From an uncultured Clostridia bacterium (lineage in GTDB: Bacteria; Bacillota; Clostridia; TANB77; CAG-508), in NCBI GenBank assembly GCA_947385375.1, contig CANDKR010000005.1, positions 41,907 to 105,906 on the forward strand: 64,000 bases of DNA. Reading direction: 5' to 3'. Within the stretch, counting starts at the first letter, position 1, and the number at the start of each line of letters is the position of its first letter. A model generated the notes under the pieces. It was given only the letters and a program-made list of their open reading frames with translations, did no database searches and was not told where the DNA came from. Below, piece by piece: positions 21,386-26,576 of the stretch. Both the position numbers and the translations under genes were made by a program.

Positions 21386-21415
21386 GAGAGCAGACCATTT
21401 TACTGGTCTGCTCTC
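21386..21415. terminator. bidirectional terminator hairpin GAGAGCAGACCA-TTTTAC-TGGTCTGCTCTC at the left edge of the GC-rich island
   Basis: 12-bp perfect stem between convergent genes. Confidence 0.6.
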
Positions 21416-21430
21416 AGGTTTATATGGCAT

Positions 21431-21856
21431 TTATTGCTGGGGTCGTTTGACATATGCCAACTGGATGCGCTTCACAGCGTTGACCACAGTAATTGTCTTG
21501 TGATTGTGATAGAACTTTCTGACTGTGGAATAGTCGGCAGGGTAGAACTCGTGCTGGAAAAGCTCGAAGCCGTCGTCATAGACGTTGATTACCAGCACAG
21601 GCTTGGGCCGGTCATATACGGCGAACTTGCTCATCGGGTGAGAATCTCCATAGGGCAGGTTTTTCAGCCGGATAAACTCGTTGCTGATAATTTCTGCCAG
21701 CTCCTGAATCTCCTGCTCAGACATCGTCTCCTTGAAGTGCTCGGTGAGCTGGGTGGTGATGTCCTGAAGGGATGGGATTTCCACGGGAGTGTTCTCCGGC
21801 AGTTGGCCCTCACTGGACTCTGTTCTCGTTATTGTTTTTACCTTTACGCATGCCAT
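21431..21856 (-). CDS. hypothetical protein (141 aa) encoded in GC-rich foreign DNA
   Basis: start MACVKVK after AAAGGAGG RBS; GC-rich codon usage unlike neighbours; a 5' UTR hairpin CTTTGGAGGC-GCAA-GCCTCCAAAG lies just upstream. Confidence 0.5.
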   Translation of the reverse strand: MACVKVKTITRTESSEGQLPENTPVEIPSLQDITTQLTEHFKETMSEQEIQELAEIISNEFIRLKNLPYGDSHPMSKFAVYDRPKPVLVINVYDDGFELFQHEFYPADYSTVRKFYHNHKTITVVNAVKRIQLAYVKRPQQ

Positions 21857-21979
21857 TTTTGTAGCCTCCTTTGAAGTGCCTTTGGAGGCTTGCGCCTCCA
21901 AAGTTTTTGTGTTTTGGGTGCGCAATATAAGATTACTTACAATACCTATTATAACACAGTTTACATAAAGATTCAAATT

Positions 21980-22008
21980 TTGACACTAATTTGTAGATAT
22001 GGTATAAT
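21980..22008 (+). promoter_or_regulatory. perfect consensus promoter TTGACA-N17-TATAAT driving the secreted-protein gene
   Basis: both hexamers match consensus exactly; downstream TAAGGAGG RBS 9 nt before ATG 22164. Confidence 0.5.
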
Positions 22009-22072
22009 AAAGTTAGATTGATGCGCTTTGCGTATCCGTCTTTCATATATATGTCGCGACCTTTTGCGACAA

Positions 22073-22085
22073 GAATTCAGCTAGC
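22073..22085. repeat. left copy of a 13-bp perfect inverted repeat GAATTCAGCTAGC (EcoRI + NheI sites)
   Basis: reverse complement GCTAGCTGAATTC occurs at 23463..23475; the pair brackets the secreted-protein gene. Confidence 0.7.
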
Positions 22086-22163
22086 AGCATATCCGGTAAT
22101 ACCCTGCAAGATCCTGAAATCAAGTAACAACAACACGACTTAGCCTAAGGAGGGCTCAACACT

Positions 22164-23420
22164 ATGAAAAAAATGGTTTCTATGTTTTTGGCAGTGCTGG
22201 CTATGCTCAGCCTGACCTGCACCGCCTTCGCGGCGGACACTTCGTCCTACGTTTATGTCTGGCAGGACGATGAAAGCAAATTGCTGCATGTGCAGCATTA
22301 CGAGTACGACGTGGTCGGCGCCTATATGGACATTGATGACCGCGTCACCGTCAAGGGCAGCAACCTGTACGACATGGCCGGCATTTTGATCACCAACGAC
22401 CTTGCGTCTTACAGTGACAACAAGCCGTCTGTGGGCCTGAACGACAGCGGACTGTATTTCCTGTCGAAAGACGGAGAACTCCGCTATATGGAACACAGCA
22501 CTGACCAGACCTACTCGGTTGCAAACGTTACCGCCGATTATATCGAGCTCGACATTGAGTCGATGGCGGTGAACGCAGTTTCCGGCCGGAAGAGCTGGGC
22601 TCTTCGGAACCTGACTTTCTCTGGCAACTACAAGCGCAATGATGACCCTGCGGTCGTAAACGGCGCTTATGTCAAGTCCTATGCGGACAAGGAAGACCCC
22701 GAGCGGATTGGCTATGATGCGTACTACAATGGTAAGCGTCTCCTGTCGACTTTCTGCCGTATCAGCAATGTGTGGCAGAGCGACTACAATGTGCTCCTGA
22801 GCAGCACCTGCAAGGGTGCTAAGTTCTGCGGTTACACCAGCGCGTATTCCATCTACCTGTATGATATGCAGACCAAGACGGTTTACGAGTTCAAGCTTGC
22901 CGACAAGTTCAAGACCGCCTACACGGTTCTGAAGGGCGAGACGGTGTATCTCTTTGAGCGCAATGATGCAGGTTTCATTTCCGCCATCGTCACTGACAAG
23001 GGCACTCACTCGGTGAGCACCACTGTGACGAATCCGTCTGCACTGGCGCCGAATCCCGGCAATAACGGTGGCAATAACGGAGGTAACGGCGGCAACACTG
23101 CCACTGGCAACATCACGTCTGTGAAGAACTTCTTGGACAAGAGTATGGCGTATGAGGGCAAAACTCTTTACGGCACTCTGTCCTACTCTGATGGCTCTTT
23201 GAGCTGGAAGGGCACCGTGATTTACAACGGAACCGATGTTGTCGACTTCGGCGTTACGAAGGACGGCGCTGCTGTGTTTACCAAGTCGAACGGTGACACG
23301 TATGTCTACCGGAACGGCAGTAACAGCAGAGTGGCAACCTCTGTGAACCAGGTGGTTTATGACGACAACGGCAGAGCCGAGGCAGTCAAGACTACTGGCA
23401 ATAAGACTCTGTACCTGTAA
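22164..23420 (+). CDS. secreted protein of unknown function (signal peptide, Gly/Asn-rich linker), about 55% GC
   Basis: 418 aa; signal peptide MKKMVSMFLAVLAMLSLTCTAFA|AD; low-complexity NPGNNGGNNGGNGGNTATGN linker; the antisense 432-aa ORF is a high-GC artefact. Confidence 0.7.
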   Translation: MKKMVSMFLAVLAMLSLTCTAFAADTSSYVYVWQDDESKLLHVQHYEYDVVGAYMDIDDRVTVKGSNLYDMAGILITNDLASYSDNKPSVGLNDSGLYFLSKDGELRYMEHSTDQTYSVANVTADYIELDIESMAVNAVSGRKSWALRNLTFSGNYKRNDDPAVVNGAYVKSYADKEDPERIGYDAYYNGKRLLSTFCRISNVWQSDYNVLLSSTCKGAKFCGYTSAYSIYLYDMQTKTVYEFKLADKFKTAYTVLKGETVYLFERNDAGFISAIVTDKGTHSVSTTVTNPSALAPNPGNNGGNNGGNGGNTATGNITSVKNFLDKSMAYEGKTLYGTLSYSDGSLSWKGTVIYNGTDVVDFGVTKDGAAVFTKSNGDTYVYRNGSNSRVATSVNQVVYDDNGRAEAVKTTGNKTLYL

Positions 23421-23462
23421 GCCCACGACTGAGGGCACGGGACAGTAACGATATATTTGCTT

Positions 23463-23475
23463 GCTAGCTGAATTC
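23463..23475. repeat. right copy of the 13-bp inverted repeat (GCTAGCTGAATTC)
   Basis: exact reverse complement of 22073..22085. Confidence 0.7.
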
Positions 23476-23486
23476 TAAAAAGGGAT

Positions 23487-23512
23487 TTCGGGTGCGTCAT
23501 AGTGACGCACCC
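23487..23512. terminator. GC-rich hairpin GGGTGCGTCA-TAG-TGACGCACCC at the right edge of the island
   Basis: 10-bp perfect stem directly after the right inverted repeat; a second AT-rich hairpin AGTGCAAACA...TGTTTGCACT follows at about 23542-23577. Confidence 0.5.
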
Positions 23513-23604
23513 GTACCCAATTTATTTTGAAAATTATTTAAGTGCAAACATTACTTTATTGTTCTTGTTTGCACTTTTTGTCTAAATATGTTAGTATATA
23601 GAGT

Positions 23605-24087
23605 ATGGAAGATAAAGAAAAGTTTATGAAAGCAGCTCTAAAAGAAGCAGGTAAAGCATATAGTAAAGAGGAAGTCCCAGTCGGAGCTGTAATTGTTAAA
23701 GATAATAAAATAATTGCAAGAGCGCACAATTTAAAGGAAACAAAGGCAAATGCAGTATCACATGCAGAGATTTTAGCAATAGAAAAAGCTTGTAAAAAAC
23801 TAGGTTCTTGGAGATTAACTGATTGTGATATGTATGTGACTTTAGAGCCTTGTACAATGTGTACAGGTGCTTTAATAAATGCTAGGATTAGAAAACTATA
23901 CATAGGTACAAATGACCCGAAAACAGGTGCTTGTGGCTCAAGGATAAATTTAATAGAAGATATTGAATTTAATCATAAGATTGAGATTGAACGAGAAATT
24001 TTGCAAAAAGAATGTGAGAAAATCTTAAAAGACTTTTTCAAATTCTTAAGAGAAAGGAATAAAAATGGAAAAGCAAAAAATATTTAA
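23605..24087 (+). CDS. tadA: tRNA-specific adenosine deaminase
   Basis: 160 aa; CMP/dCMP deaminase zinc motifs HAEILAI and PCTMCTGA. Confidence 0.9.
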   Translation: MEDKEKFMKAALKEAGKAYSKEEVPVGAVIVKDNKIIARAHNLKETKANAVSHAEILAIEKACKKLGSWRLTDCDMYVTLEPCTMCTGALINARIRKLYIGTNDPKTGACGSRINLIEDIEFNHKIEIEREILQKECEKILKDFFKFLRERNKNGKAKNI

Positions 24088-24793
24088 GAGATGTGCTTTT
24101 ATTGCAGTCGTGGTAATACTTATAACGATTGCACTTACAATTATGCTTAAATATGAAGTTGAAGGTGAGCAGTCATTGCCTTATGCAATCGATAAAATAC
24201 TTATGGTAAGTACAGTTGATGGTGACTTTGTCGATGATAGTGAGCATATTTGGAATATCAATGTAACAGAGATAAATGATTTATATATGTACATTTCTCA
24301 AAGTAAAGAAACAGAAGAGACTATTAAACAGATAACTATTGAGAATTTTAATTTGGATAAAAAACCACAAAAAGGAAATGTTAAAATATACAGACCAACT
24401 TCAGATTTAGACAACCTATACACTTATAGTGAACAGGATTATTTAAATGATAAAATTGTATATACGGGTGCAAAAATAGATGATATGAAAACTTTAGAAA
24501 TTGCTAATAATGGTGGTATGTTAGGCTTTAGACTATCTTTGGAAGATTTAGGAACATATATATCAAATGAAGACACAGAAATCATTTATGATGGGCGCTT
24601 ACTTCAAAATTTAGGTGTTTCTTTGGAAGAAATAAAGCTACAACTAAGTTTTGATATAATTATTGAAACAAATTCAAATGTAAGTTATAAAGGTTCTTTG
24701 TTAATGGAAATGCCAACAGATGAAATAATAGAGAAAGGTTCATCACAAATTGAGATAACAGATTTCTCAGATGTTATATTTAAAAGAATATAA
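24065..24793 (+). CDS. membrane-anchored hypothetical protein (single N-terminal TM)
   Basis: 242 aa, TM helix CAFIAVVVILITIALTIML, overlaps tadA stop by 23 nt. Confidence 0.5.
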   Translation: MEKQKIFKRCAFIAVVVILITIALTIMLKYEVEGEQSLPYAIDKILMVSTVDGDFVDDSEHIWNINVTEINDLYMYISQSKETEETIKQITIENFNLDKKPQKGNVKIYRPTSDLDNLYTYSEQDYLNDKIVYTGAKIDDMKTLEIANNGGMLGFRLSLEDLGTYISNEDTEIIYDGRLLQNLGVSLEEIKLQLSFDIIIETNSNVSYKGSLLMEMPTDEIIEKGSSQIEITDFSDVIFKRI

Positions 24794-24854
24794 AAAGGTA
24801 TTGCAAAAAGGAAAATTCCATTATATAATCATAAAAGAATTTAAGAGGGCTTTT

Positions 24855-24956
24855 CTTTAGGAAGGTATACTTCAATAAAAAGCTATGAATCTCGTCAGGT
24901 TCGGAAGGAAGCAGCGATAAGTAGTGCATTTATGTGAATAGTATGCCTTCCTAAAG
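24855..24956 (+). ncRNA. ffs: small SRP RNA (ffs, 4.5S/scRNA-type)
   Basis: conserved domain IV sequence GTCAGGTTCGGAAGGAAGCAGCG, closing stem CTTTAGGAAGGTATAC / GTATGCCTTCCTAAAG, canonical position directly upstream of dnaX-ybaB-recR. Confidence 0.7.
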
Positions 24957-24989
24957 AGAAGTCTTTTCTTTTAAATTAAGGGGGCAAAA

Positions 24990-26576
24990 ATGGCATATAC
25001 AGCTTTATATAGAGCATTTAGACCAACCACCTTTGCAGATATGGTTGGACAAGATCATATAACTAAAACTTTGAAAAATCAGATAATGGCAGGAAGAGTA
25101 GGGCATGCATATTTATTTAATGGTGGTCGTGGTACAGGAAAAACTACTTCTGCAAAAATACTTGCAAGAGCAGTAAATTGCTTAAATCCAAAAGATGGTG
25201 AGCCTTGTAACGAATGTGAAATTTGCAAAGAAATCTTAAGTGGTTCACTAACTGATGTAGTAGAAATGGATGCAGCTTCAAACAATAGCGTTGAAGATAT
25301 TAGAACTATTAGAGATGAAGTAAATTTCTTACCAACTAAAGCAAAATATAGAGTATATATAATTGATGAGGTTCATATGTTATCAGTAGGTGCTTTTAAT
25401 GCACTACTTAAAACTTTAGAAGAACCACCAGAGCATGTTAAATTTATTTTAGCTACTACTGAGCCTCAAAAATTACCAACTACAATACTTTCAAGATGCC
25501 AAAGATTTGATTTTAAGAAAATTTCAGATGAATATATTATAAAAAGACTTAAAGTTATTTGTGAAGGCGCTAATATTAAAATTAGTGAAGAAGCTATGAA
25601 GATTATTGCTGTACTTTCAGAAGGTGCAATGCGTGATGCGATAAGTATATTAGAAAGATGTAGCCAAGAAAGTAGCGATGAGATTTCAGCAGATATGGTT
25701 AAAGAATTAGTTGGAATTCCTAACTTAGAATACATTAGTAGGATTTCAAAAGCAATGCTTGCAAATGACGAAATATCAGCACTTGGAGTTATTGATGAAG
25801 TTATAAAAGAGGGAAAAGACTTATATAATTTCTTATGGGAAATTATTAAGTACATAAAAGATGTGCTTGTATATAAAGCAACTAATCATTTAGAGTTATA
25901 TTCAACAGAAGAGTTACAGCAGATAAAAGAAATTGCTGAAACTAGTGAAAAAGATAGACTTTTAAGCATTATATATGAATTATCAGAATTAGAAAACAGT
26001 TTGAAATGGTCTAATCAAAAAACTATTTTATTTCAAACAGGTGTAATAAAAGCTTGTATGGGCGGAAATTTTGCAAGCGGAGATGTACAAGAATTACAAA
26101 ATAGAATAGAAAAATTAGAAGCAAAAATTAGTAATATAAATCCATCAGAAATGATGAAAAGCTCACAAAATAATTATGTGAGAGAAGAAAAGCAAGAGCA
26201 AGCAATATCAGTACCTGCTCCAGAAAAGAAAATACCAGATTTACCAAAACAAAAGGGTAATGATTTTTGGAAAAGAGTAATGGACACTTTAAAACGTAGT
26301 AATAAAATGACTCTTTATGCGACACTTATTAATAGTAGAGCTACACTTATAAATGATTTTAGTCTTGAAATCGAGTTTCCAAACGGACTTACAGCTTTTA
26401 ATGAGAGTTTCTTAAATAATGCGAATAATAGAACAGACTTAATAAAAGCTGTGCAAGCAGTTACTGGAAATCAAGTAAGTATAACTATAAAAGACGGCAG
26501 AACAAAGGCATCAGAAGTAAAAGAAACAAAAACTCCTATGCAAGATTTAGGCATAGATATAAATATAATAGATTAA
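24990..26576 (+). CDS. dnaX: DNA polymerase III subunits gamma/tau
   Basis: 528 aa; Walker [10 protein letters not shown], zinc module CNECEIC, Walker B IIDEVHML, sensor motifs. Confidence 0.95.

Follow-up and report, generated by a model that had tools for sequence, protein, structure and literature searches.

Introduction

In Bacillus subtilis, the mRNA of hbs forms a 14-bp duplex between its two untranslated regions (5' and 3' UTRs), and this duplex shields the leader from RNase Y, while a strong Shine-Dalgarno (SD) sequence blocks RNase J1 (Braun, Durand and Condon 2017, PMC5737220), and long-range duplexes of 10-36 bp are widespread in the mRNAs of this species (PMC11780869). In Staphylococcus aureus, the icaR mRNA pairs through its 3' UTR with the SD sequence in the 5' UTR of the same molecule, blocking translation and triggering cleavage by RNase III (Ruiz de los Mozos 2013, reviewed in PMC7821165). 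Here we describe a predicted transcript of this general kind in an uncultured Clostridia bacterium. The DNA analysed is a stretch of 64,000 nucleotides (hereafter the window; contig CANDKR010000005.1 of assembly GCA_947385375.1, positions 41,907 to 105,906 of the forward strand), and the gene in question encodes a protein of 418 amino acids (aa) at positions 22164..23420 of the forward strand, a coding sequence supported by the list of open reading frames (ORFs), the family alignment and the structure model. The reading that we put forward, with about even confidence, is that a resident gene directs strong expression of an extracellular protein that is not an enzyme but has a binding or structural role, the mRNA being GC-enriched and stabilised by the pairing of its ends, in the manner of hbs.

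Predicted pairing between the ends of the transcript

The 418-aa gene is preceded by a sigma-70-type promoter that matches the consensus at 12 of 12 positions (TTGACA-17-TATAAT, 21980..22008, forward strand), carries an extended -10 TG and is conserved in nine loci. The transcription start would lie at about 22015, and the transcript read from this consensus promoter is predicted to be monocistronic. Its leader would begin with a 5'-terminal stem-loop, hairpin 1 (22015..22041, forward strand, core 22020-22036; RNAalifold columns 7-23), which leaves no unpaired 5' nucleotide at the predicted start and shows one- and two-sided changes among the loci. Hairpin 2 follows (tGTCGCGA-CCTT-TTGCGACa, 22052..22071, forward strand; columns 45-66), with all of its eight pairs kept, and directly after it stands the 5' arm of a helix that brackets the coding sequence (AGAATTCAGCTAGCA+GCA, 22072..22089, forward strand). 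The SD sequence AAGGAGG, conserved in the alignment, is found 10 nt before the ATG (22147..22153, forward strand). Beyond the ORF come the 3' arm of the helix (TGCT-T-GCTAGCTGAATTCT, 23458..23476, forward strand) and, closing the transcript, a GC-rich 3' hairpin of 11 bp (23489..23513, forward strand; columns 139-165), in which six of 12 pairs show compensatory changes and which is likely to be an intrinsic terminator. The T-run of the window begins 8 nt past the stem of this hairpin and is not flagged by a simple scan, and the T-runs of the related loci L019 and L030 are canonical.

The perfect complement of the 5' arm extends over 15 nt, beginning 41 nt past the stop codon and ending 12 nt short of the 3' hairpin; both arms would fall between the predicted promoter and the terminator-like hairpin. 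With three added pairs and one bulge the duplex reaches 18 bp (-28.9 kcal/mol). Of the 50 window ORFs that reach 150 aa, this one has the longest bracket, of 15 nt (median 8, next 11). Analysis of ten loci with RNAalifold recovered all four helices, including the long-range one. In that helix 94.6% of the cells are paired, double changes of the compensatory kind occur at three pairs (UA to CG in two, GC to AU in the third), and the covariation score was reached in none of 500 shuffles. U.G wobbles in four loci are valid on the sense strand only. This conserved pairing of the 5' and 3' UTRs around the ORF, which we judge to be the most unusual feature of the locus, had been overlooked in an earlier, sequence-only reading of the window.

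The same arrangement of hairpins, arm, ORF, arm and terminator is found in other genes of the family, the spacers between these elements not being conserved. At the related loci L011 and L024 a second family member lies directly downstream of the orthologue (L011 9534-10757 and L024 7486-8703), with a milder GC enrichment, its GC content at third codon positions (GC3) being 0.28-0.31. These downstream paralogues carry, at the same positions, arms unrelated to those of the orthologues, GAACTCAAACCAGC and AAACTCAAACCAGC, which are perfect over 14 nt and differ by a G-C to A-U compensatory change. The distant family member P0017 (L031) has the same layout with an arm of 11 nt (TCTTGGCTGGC), and in another distant member, P0039 (L025), the arms AGTGCTT(T)GGGATT and AATCCCAAGCACT were read by eye as complementary. 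Matrices of cognate versus non-cognate UTRs (RNAduplex, G.U allowed) were set aside for their noise, the signal being lost among large internal loops and chance helices of AT-rich sequence. A scan of positions 21300-25100 against Rfam (E up to 1) returned only the small signal recognition particle (SRP) RNA and a chance match to NrrF, by which a known riboswitch or leader family was ruled out for the 5' leader. A covariance model built on the leader detected no copy beyond its training set, either in the window or in 13 loci, which means that no other genes there share the leader.

Comparison with the described systems shows the closure of this mRNA to be a variation on an element already described, unusual in its family-wide covariation and in a persistent GC anomaly of the whole transcript. 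As in hbs, the organism is a Firmicute, the transcript would be monocistronic and its protein abundant, the 5' UTR is structured and the SD sequence is strong; the duplex of 15-18 bp, against 14 bp in hbs, also reaches the length of at least about 14 bp expected of such an element. The two differ in that the arms span an ORF of 1.26 kb here, the hbs transcript being of about 0.4 kb, and in that the present helix is kept across paralogues with differing arms, belongs to a transcript of distinct composition throughout and is known from sequence alone. With icaR the locus shares an intramolecular duplex between the 3' and 5' UTRs of a Firmicute mRNA, but the icaR duplex occupies the SD sequence, whereas here the SD sequence is free, with the arm about 57 nt upstream.

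By analogy with hbs, we propose that both the helix and the GC content have a stabilising role. The mRNA would be built for stability and high output, with its 5' stem-loop, second hairpin, strong SD sequence, folded GC-rich body, 3' hairpin and closing helix. The 5' end would be buried in a stem, the helix of 15-18 bp would tie the leader to the 3' end and so close the transcript, and the GC-rich body would present few AU-rich single-stranded sites to endonucleases.

The main rival for the role of the helix is that it serves as a site of processing or repression by RNase III, comparable to the rRNA stalks or to icaR, at which the 5' hairpins and the terminator would be cleaved off and the mRNA matured or destabilised. 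The length of the duplex falls inside the range of 10-36 bp of the long-range intramolecular RNase III substrates of B. subtilis (PMC11780869), and in icaR the pairing of the two ends does make an RNase III substrate (PMC7821165). However, the pairs mapped in B. subtilis span at most about 505 nt, compared with 1.37 kb here, the helix stays clear of the SD sequence as that of icaR does not, and the consensus promoter, 5'-terminal stem and strong SD sequence point to high output. We therefore regard an RNase III site as unlikely.

Composition and history of the locus

The 418-aa gene stands in a block of about 2.1 kb (~21385-23515) whose GC content is 0.46-0.53, the mean of the window being 0.31. 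The gene itself has a GC content of 0.53 and a GC3 of 0.70, compared with a GC3 of 0.11-0.32 in the other window ORFs of at least 150 aa, and favours CTG, GGC and AAG codons, with A rare at third positions (A3 = 0.06). Its UTRs are GC-enriched as well (0.44 and 0.52), and the promoter block has a value of 0.33. The sequence-only reading had noted this GC excess correctly, but had also presented the 418-aa gene as the only cargo of the island, which does not hold because a gene of 141 codons at 21431-21856 lies there too, and had implied that the island was freshly acquired. We found instead that synteny and GC enrichment of the gene hold in all relatives sampled, to as low as 40% identity: orthologues of 40-100% identity all stand directly upstream of the genes tadA-242aa-dnaX-ybaB-recR, in lineages whose DnaX proteins are 76-87% identical.

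The GC excess recurs in these lineages. In eight alleles (seven from the clade of the window and that of L019) GC3 is 0.68-0.74, with 0.14-0.25 in host genes, and the orthologues of L011 and L024 have values of 0.46 and 0.37, with 0.10-0.16 and 0.11-0.17 in the host genes of the respective loci. Distant members of the family located elsewhere show 0.34 in a flank of GC 0.27 (P0017) and, next to spoVA, 0.26 beside neighbours of 0.07-0.09 (P0039). The latter gene (L025 3915-7239) follows directly after spoVAC-spoVAD-spoVAEb and has its own sigma-A-like promoter; a connection with sporulation is possible. Within the clade of the window, synonymous divergence (dS) is 0.74-1.0 in the 418-aa gene and 0.47-1.05 in host genes, the low tadA value for L028 being excluded from the latter range, whereas a neutral GC-rich gene exposed to the AT-biased mutation of the host would show synonymous evolution about 2.5 times faster and would have lost most of its GC3. 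Host synonymous third positions that are G or C in the window are kept by the partner at 21-65% within the clade and at 7-29%, near background, when the window is compared with L011 and L024. Judged from these alignments, host synonymous sites appear saturated at the distance of L011 and L024, and yet the GC3 of the gene remains between 0.37 and 0.74 there.

Recent horizontal acquisition, in which the 2.1-kb block would have come from a bacterial donor with a GC content of about 55-60% and would still carry an un-ameliorated donor composition, accounts readily for the contrast of 0.53 with 0.30 in GC content and for the foreign-looking codon usage. Parts of the block have moved recently between lineages: the 141-aa gene and both promoters, which stand back-to-back (21420-22090), are 98-100% identical to positions 7240-7915 of L009 in flanks of 85-93%, the identity collapsing a few bases past the 5' arm of the bracketing helix, and this contrast in identity is the mark of a recent recombination between lineages at the locus. 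Acquisition of the whole is nevertheless distinctly improbable in our view. The gene occupies the same locus in lineages as distant as the DnaX identities above indicate, its dS matches that of host genes, and its GC excess endures in deep relatives whose host sites are apparently saturated. No homologue in a different context and none in a GC-rich donor was found among 5.8 billion clusters or 1.84 billion representatives, and searches of plasmids and phages with tblastn gave no match to the 418-aa protein. No integrase or transposase domain was seen among the genes with domains examined in the window and the related loci, no flanking direct repeats were found at the borders of the block, and the only transfer RNA (tRNA) gene within several kb is 6 kb away. 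The amino-acid composition of the protein (K 6.3%, R 3.0%, N 7.9% and Y 8.4%) is of a low-GC type, with Lys exceeding Arg and with high Asn and Tyr, which argues against a very GC-rich donor.

Since the locus is the same throughout, dS is like that of the host, the amino acids are of low-GC type and the GC excess reaches deep lineages, the block is probably not a recent import, and the 418-aa gene appears, on the comparison of these loci, to be a long-standing resident upstream of tadA. The block resembles the genomic islands called by atypical GC content in its sharp compositional step (0.30 to 0.53), its size of about 2.1 kb and its orphan genes. It differs from them in that no mobility genes, adjacent tRNA gene or direct repeats were seen, in that all sampled relatives have it at the same locus, and in that its GC excess endures where host synonymous sites appear saturated. 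GC-biased gene conversion may contribute to the excess.

Two further comparisons of third positions were not used as evidence. Polarised singletons on the terminal branches of the in-group comprised 19 changes from G or C to A or T (S to W) and one in the opposite direction, and this test of amelioration was dropped because a stationary GC3 of about 0.7, together with the agreement of the other seven sequences, favours long-lived S sites. The third positions compared between the window and L019 (SS.54, SW.16, WS.20, WW.09) are compatible both with sites saturated at a stationary GC3 and with independent decay of an all-GC ancestor. Ten of the 12 Arg codons of the 418-aa gene are CGN, six of them CGT or CGC, codons that are read by the inosine-modified tRNA-Arg produced by TadA; that such a gene should stand just upstream of tadA is probably a coincidence.

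Placing the composition and the pairing together leads to a stronger proposal, which we advance only tentatively: that in one family of secreted-protein genes of these Clostridia, whose genomes have roughly 30% GC, selection keeps the whole transcript, UTRs included, GC-enriched and over-folded, and closed by a co-evolving helix between the leader hairpin and the terminator, yielding an ultra-stable or RNase-evading mRNA. When coding regions were compared with shuffles of synonymous codons, folding z-scores of -3.5, -3.3 and -3.7 were obtained for three divergent orthologues and of -2.1 and -0.6 for two host genes. Several observations weigh against the proposal and against stabilisation by the helix in general. 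These z-scores lie only modestly beyond the controls; the independent covariation events are few and come from 10-12 loci only; the pairing in L025 was read by eye and requires a bulge; with G.U allowed, chance helices of 10-14 bp are common between AT-rich UTRs; the transcription start and the terminator are predictions, and the U-tract of the window terminator is poor. In addition, if the slow rate of tadA is used, neutral decay from a very GC-rich ancestor is possible in the clade of the window alone.

The probably exported protein and its family

The sequence-only reading had described the 418-aa product as secreted, novel and equipped with a flexible linker, and this headline is essentially right, although ordinary when taken alone; the interest of the locus lies in its compositional and RNA features, which are themselves computational inferences. 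The ORF is present as described, and the N-terminus of its product, MKKMVSMFLAVLAMLSLTCTAFA|AD, shows the three classical regions of a signal-peptidase-I substrate (residues 1-24, nt 22164-22235). The n-region has two Lys (M-K-K, residues 1-3), the first of them (K2) occurring in at least 90% of 12 close homologues; the h-region comprises the 15 residues 5-19 (VSMFLAVLAMLSLTC; mean Kyte-Doolittle value 2.27), and residues 2-15 are a helix in the structure model. The A-x-A motif is found at positions -3 and -1 (A-F-A|A-D), and 'TAFA-A' is near-invariant over the 35 family members (A23 in at least 90%). A lipobox is not present in the signal peptide, in which Cys19 stands at -5, is preceded by Thr and is not conserved among close homologues. 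Taken with its conservation in the family, this signal peptide suggests that the protein is exported by the Sec pathway, as had been claimed. The ORF product has a mass of about 43 kDa, and its mature form is acidic (pI ~5.1), with an abundance of Ser, Thr, Asp, Tyr, Asn, Gly and Val. LPXTG was not seen in the sequence, and no cell-wall anchor domain (SLH, CWB2) was matched by Pfam.

Searches of Pfam, NCBIfam, PHROGs, PADLOC and PDB sequences gave no match for the protein, in agreement with the earlier view that it belongs to no characterised family. The family is small: 5.8 billion clusters at 90% identity include 12 of its members and 1.84 billion representatives at 50% identity include 34. 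Its hosts are metagenome-assembled genomes (MAGs) labelled as uncultured Clostridia, from mouse gut catalogues and from water-deer cecum. It would thus seem to be confined to uncultured low-GC gut Clostridia. Nearly all members have about 410 aa, and a few consist of two modules and about 300 aa.

A first AlphaFold model built on 12 sequences was poor in the N-terminal part (pLDDT 55.8) and was superseded by one built on 35 sequences (pLDDT 83.5, pTM 0.47). In the latter the protein consists of three separate all-beta modules of about 105-135 aa and 12-13 strands each, connected by two disordered linkers: module 1 (residues 25-160; model boundaries ~26-160), a short linker (residues 161-166, disordered at 162-166), module 2 (residues 167-290), the Gly/Asn linker (residues ~293-317, nt 23040-23114) and module 3 (residues 318-418). 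The three modules are mutually homologous (hhalign probability 90-95%, E 1e-6 to 2e-8). The division into two domains with one linker, as proposed in the sequence-only reading, is replaced by this arrangement; the Gly/Asn-rich linker itself was recognised correctly. Its sequence is NPGNNGGNNGGNGGNTATGN, of which residues 293-313 are disordered (pLDDT <50), and its length differs between alleles in the alignment, total protein length being 411-420 aa. Part of it is encoded by a 12-nt tandem duplication (23058-23081, GGCAATAACGGT / GGCAATAACGGA), and the differences among alleles suggest that slippage drives the variation in length.

The modules are built of four-stranded antiparallel blades, and Foldseek returns WD40-type propellers for them with a TM score of only 0.1-0.2. 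A search of a viral fold library gave nothing meaningful (TM <=0.19), and neither the query nor any of the 35 members reached the threshold for a Pfam propeller family, isolated sub-threshold matches to Tachylectin, SSL_N and Hira being all that was seen. Because the Foldseek scores are low and no family profile matches, we assign the fold class alone, as the model would have it: tandem modules of about three beta-propeller blades each. The 418-aa protein accordingly represents a new family in a known fold class, and its closest solved relative is the uncharacterised EUBREC_1955 of Eubacterium rectale, which we take to be a DUF5050 protein. That structure (PDB 3s25, '7-bladed beta-propeller-like protein') likewise comes from a gut Firmicute and is all-beta, with four-stranded antiparallel blade-like repeats. 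Compared with the beta-propellers (Tricorn, prolyl oligopeptidase, WD40) and with the designed three-blade fragments Cake3 and 6r5z, each module aligns to about three blades. The model, at its pTM of 0.47, has three modules of about three blades on flexible linkers and not a single closed ring, and part of the family possesses two modules only.

As had been noticed before, the protein shows no recognisable catalytic motif, and on the model it is probably non-enzymatic. A blade-like repeat fold would be more in keeping with binding or structure than with catalysis, and we infer an extracellular role of this type (lectin-, adhesin- or matrix-like). The likeness to binding or adhesion proteins suggested by the sequence-only reading is supported by the fold class, while the two-domain architecture on which it was based does not.

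Within the clade of the window the ratio of nonsynonymous to synonymous divergence (dN/dS) of the gene is 0.12-0.17, against 0.03-0.12 in neighbouring housekeeping genes, and the sequence comparison indicates that the gene is under purifying selection yet evolves faster than these neighbours. This faster evolution would be compatible with the 418-aa protein being a toxin or bacteriocin-like effector, with the 141-aa protein as its immunity or chaperone partner, and the vicinity of a secreted orphan to a small cytoplasmic one, with back-to-back promoters, would fit such a pair too. We give this idea little credence, however, given that no toxin or defence domain was detected, that the 141-aa gene is absent at the deeper orthologous loci L011, L019 and L024, and that the three modules share one beta-repeat fold and include no separate effector domain.

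On the opposite strand, a frame codon-aligned with the 418-aa gene is fully open over 432 aa (22140-23438, reverse strand). The codons TTA, CTA and TCA occur 0-1 times in the eight alleles compared with 2.6-4.8 expected, and the same depletion is seen in L011 and L024. An antisense gene was rejected as the principal explanation, as the frame has no SD sequence and is interrupted in L015, L030, L011 and L024, the depletion being present also where it is closed; codon preference is the likely cause of the open frame. Phase variation of the DNA, in which the inverted repeats would act as recombination sites and flip the ORF against a fixed promoter, perhaps with expression of the antisense frame, would draw on the perfect 15-nt inverted repeat around the ORF with the promoter outside it, on the antisense frame being open in six of the eight alleles and on the depletion of TTA, CTA and TCA, but it is scarcely credible, for a single orientation relative to tadA is found in all contigs examined (eight alleles), no recombinase domain occurs among the annotated neighbours in the window and the related loci, the T.G positions in the arms of four loci pair only as sense-strand RNA, a site-specific recombinase would not tolerate the unrelated arms of the paralogues, and the antisense ORF lacks an SD sequence and shows the same codon depletion where it is closed. 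Flipped and normal junctions were both absent from the JGI metagenomes, which gives no discrimination between the orientations.

Other genes and elements around the block

The second gene of the block, an orphan encoding 141 aa (MACVKVK..., 21431..21856, reverse strand), has a GC content of 0.50. Its promoter-like site (TTGAAT-17-TATAAT, 21948..21976, reverse strand) matches the consensus at 10 of 12 positions with TG present, and its 5' UTR contains a hairpin (21880-21903). The ORF is called in the related contigs L001 and L003-L006, and its nine homologue clusters, of 59-99% identity, all belong to the same clade, with a dN/dS of 0.19-0.31. The protein is without a signal peptide and gave no match in PADLOC, PHROGs, NCBIfam or PDB sequences.

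The left edge of the block is marked by a bidirectional terminator hairpin with a 14-bp stem (21384..21417), which serves an anti-sigma factor gene on the forward strand and the 141-aa gene on the reverse strand and is kept in L009 with compensatory changes. Upstream of the block (18269-21367) lie genes for a Fic-domain protein (reverse strand), a sigma factor of the extracytoplasmic function (ECF) type (19516-20004) and a zf-HC2 anti-sigma factor (19994-21367), and in related MAGs a second pair of sigma and anti-sigma factors is inserted upstream of the block. The 418-aa gene is served by a promoter of sigma-A type and not by one of ECF type. Downstream, the small SRP RNA (RF00169, 57.9 bits, E 2.5e-11) is located at 24859-24955 on the forward strand between the conserved 242-aa gene and dnaX; it was annotated in the window only.

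Implications

The family to which the 418-aa protein belongs comprises undescribed, presumably exported beta-repeat proteins of three modules, specific to uncultured Clostridia of the mouse and ruminant gut, and the protein, being probably strongly expressed, may act at the surface, in a matrix or in interaction with the host. It is routine to take GC-rich patches of AT-rich genomes as signs of horizontal transfer, and the evidence at this locus argues for a GC excess that has been maintained in place. If selection does keep the transcript GC-enriched and closed, it would follow that a strong GC anomaly can reflect selection at the RNA level and not a signature of transfer, which would call for caution in the use of composition-based callers of genomic islands. 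If the GC excess is tied to the closing helix, the gene would offer a natural design of a whole transcript for mRNA stability, and the single well-studied Firmicute case, hbs, would be extended to a gene family with support from phylogenetic covariation.

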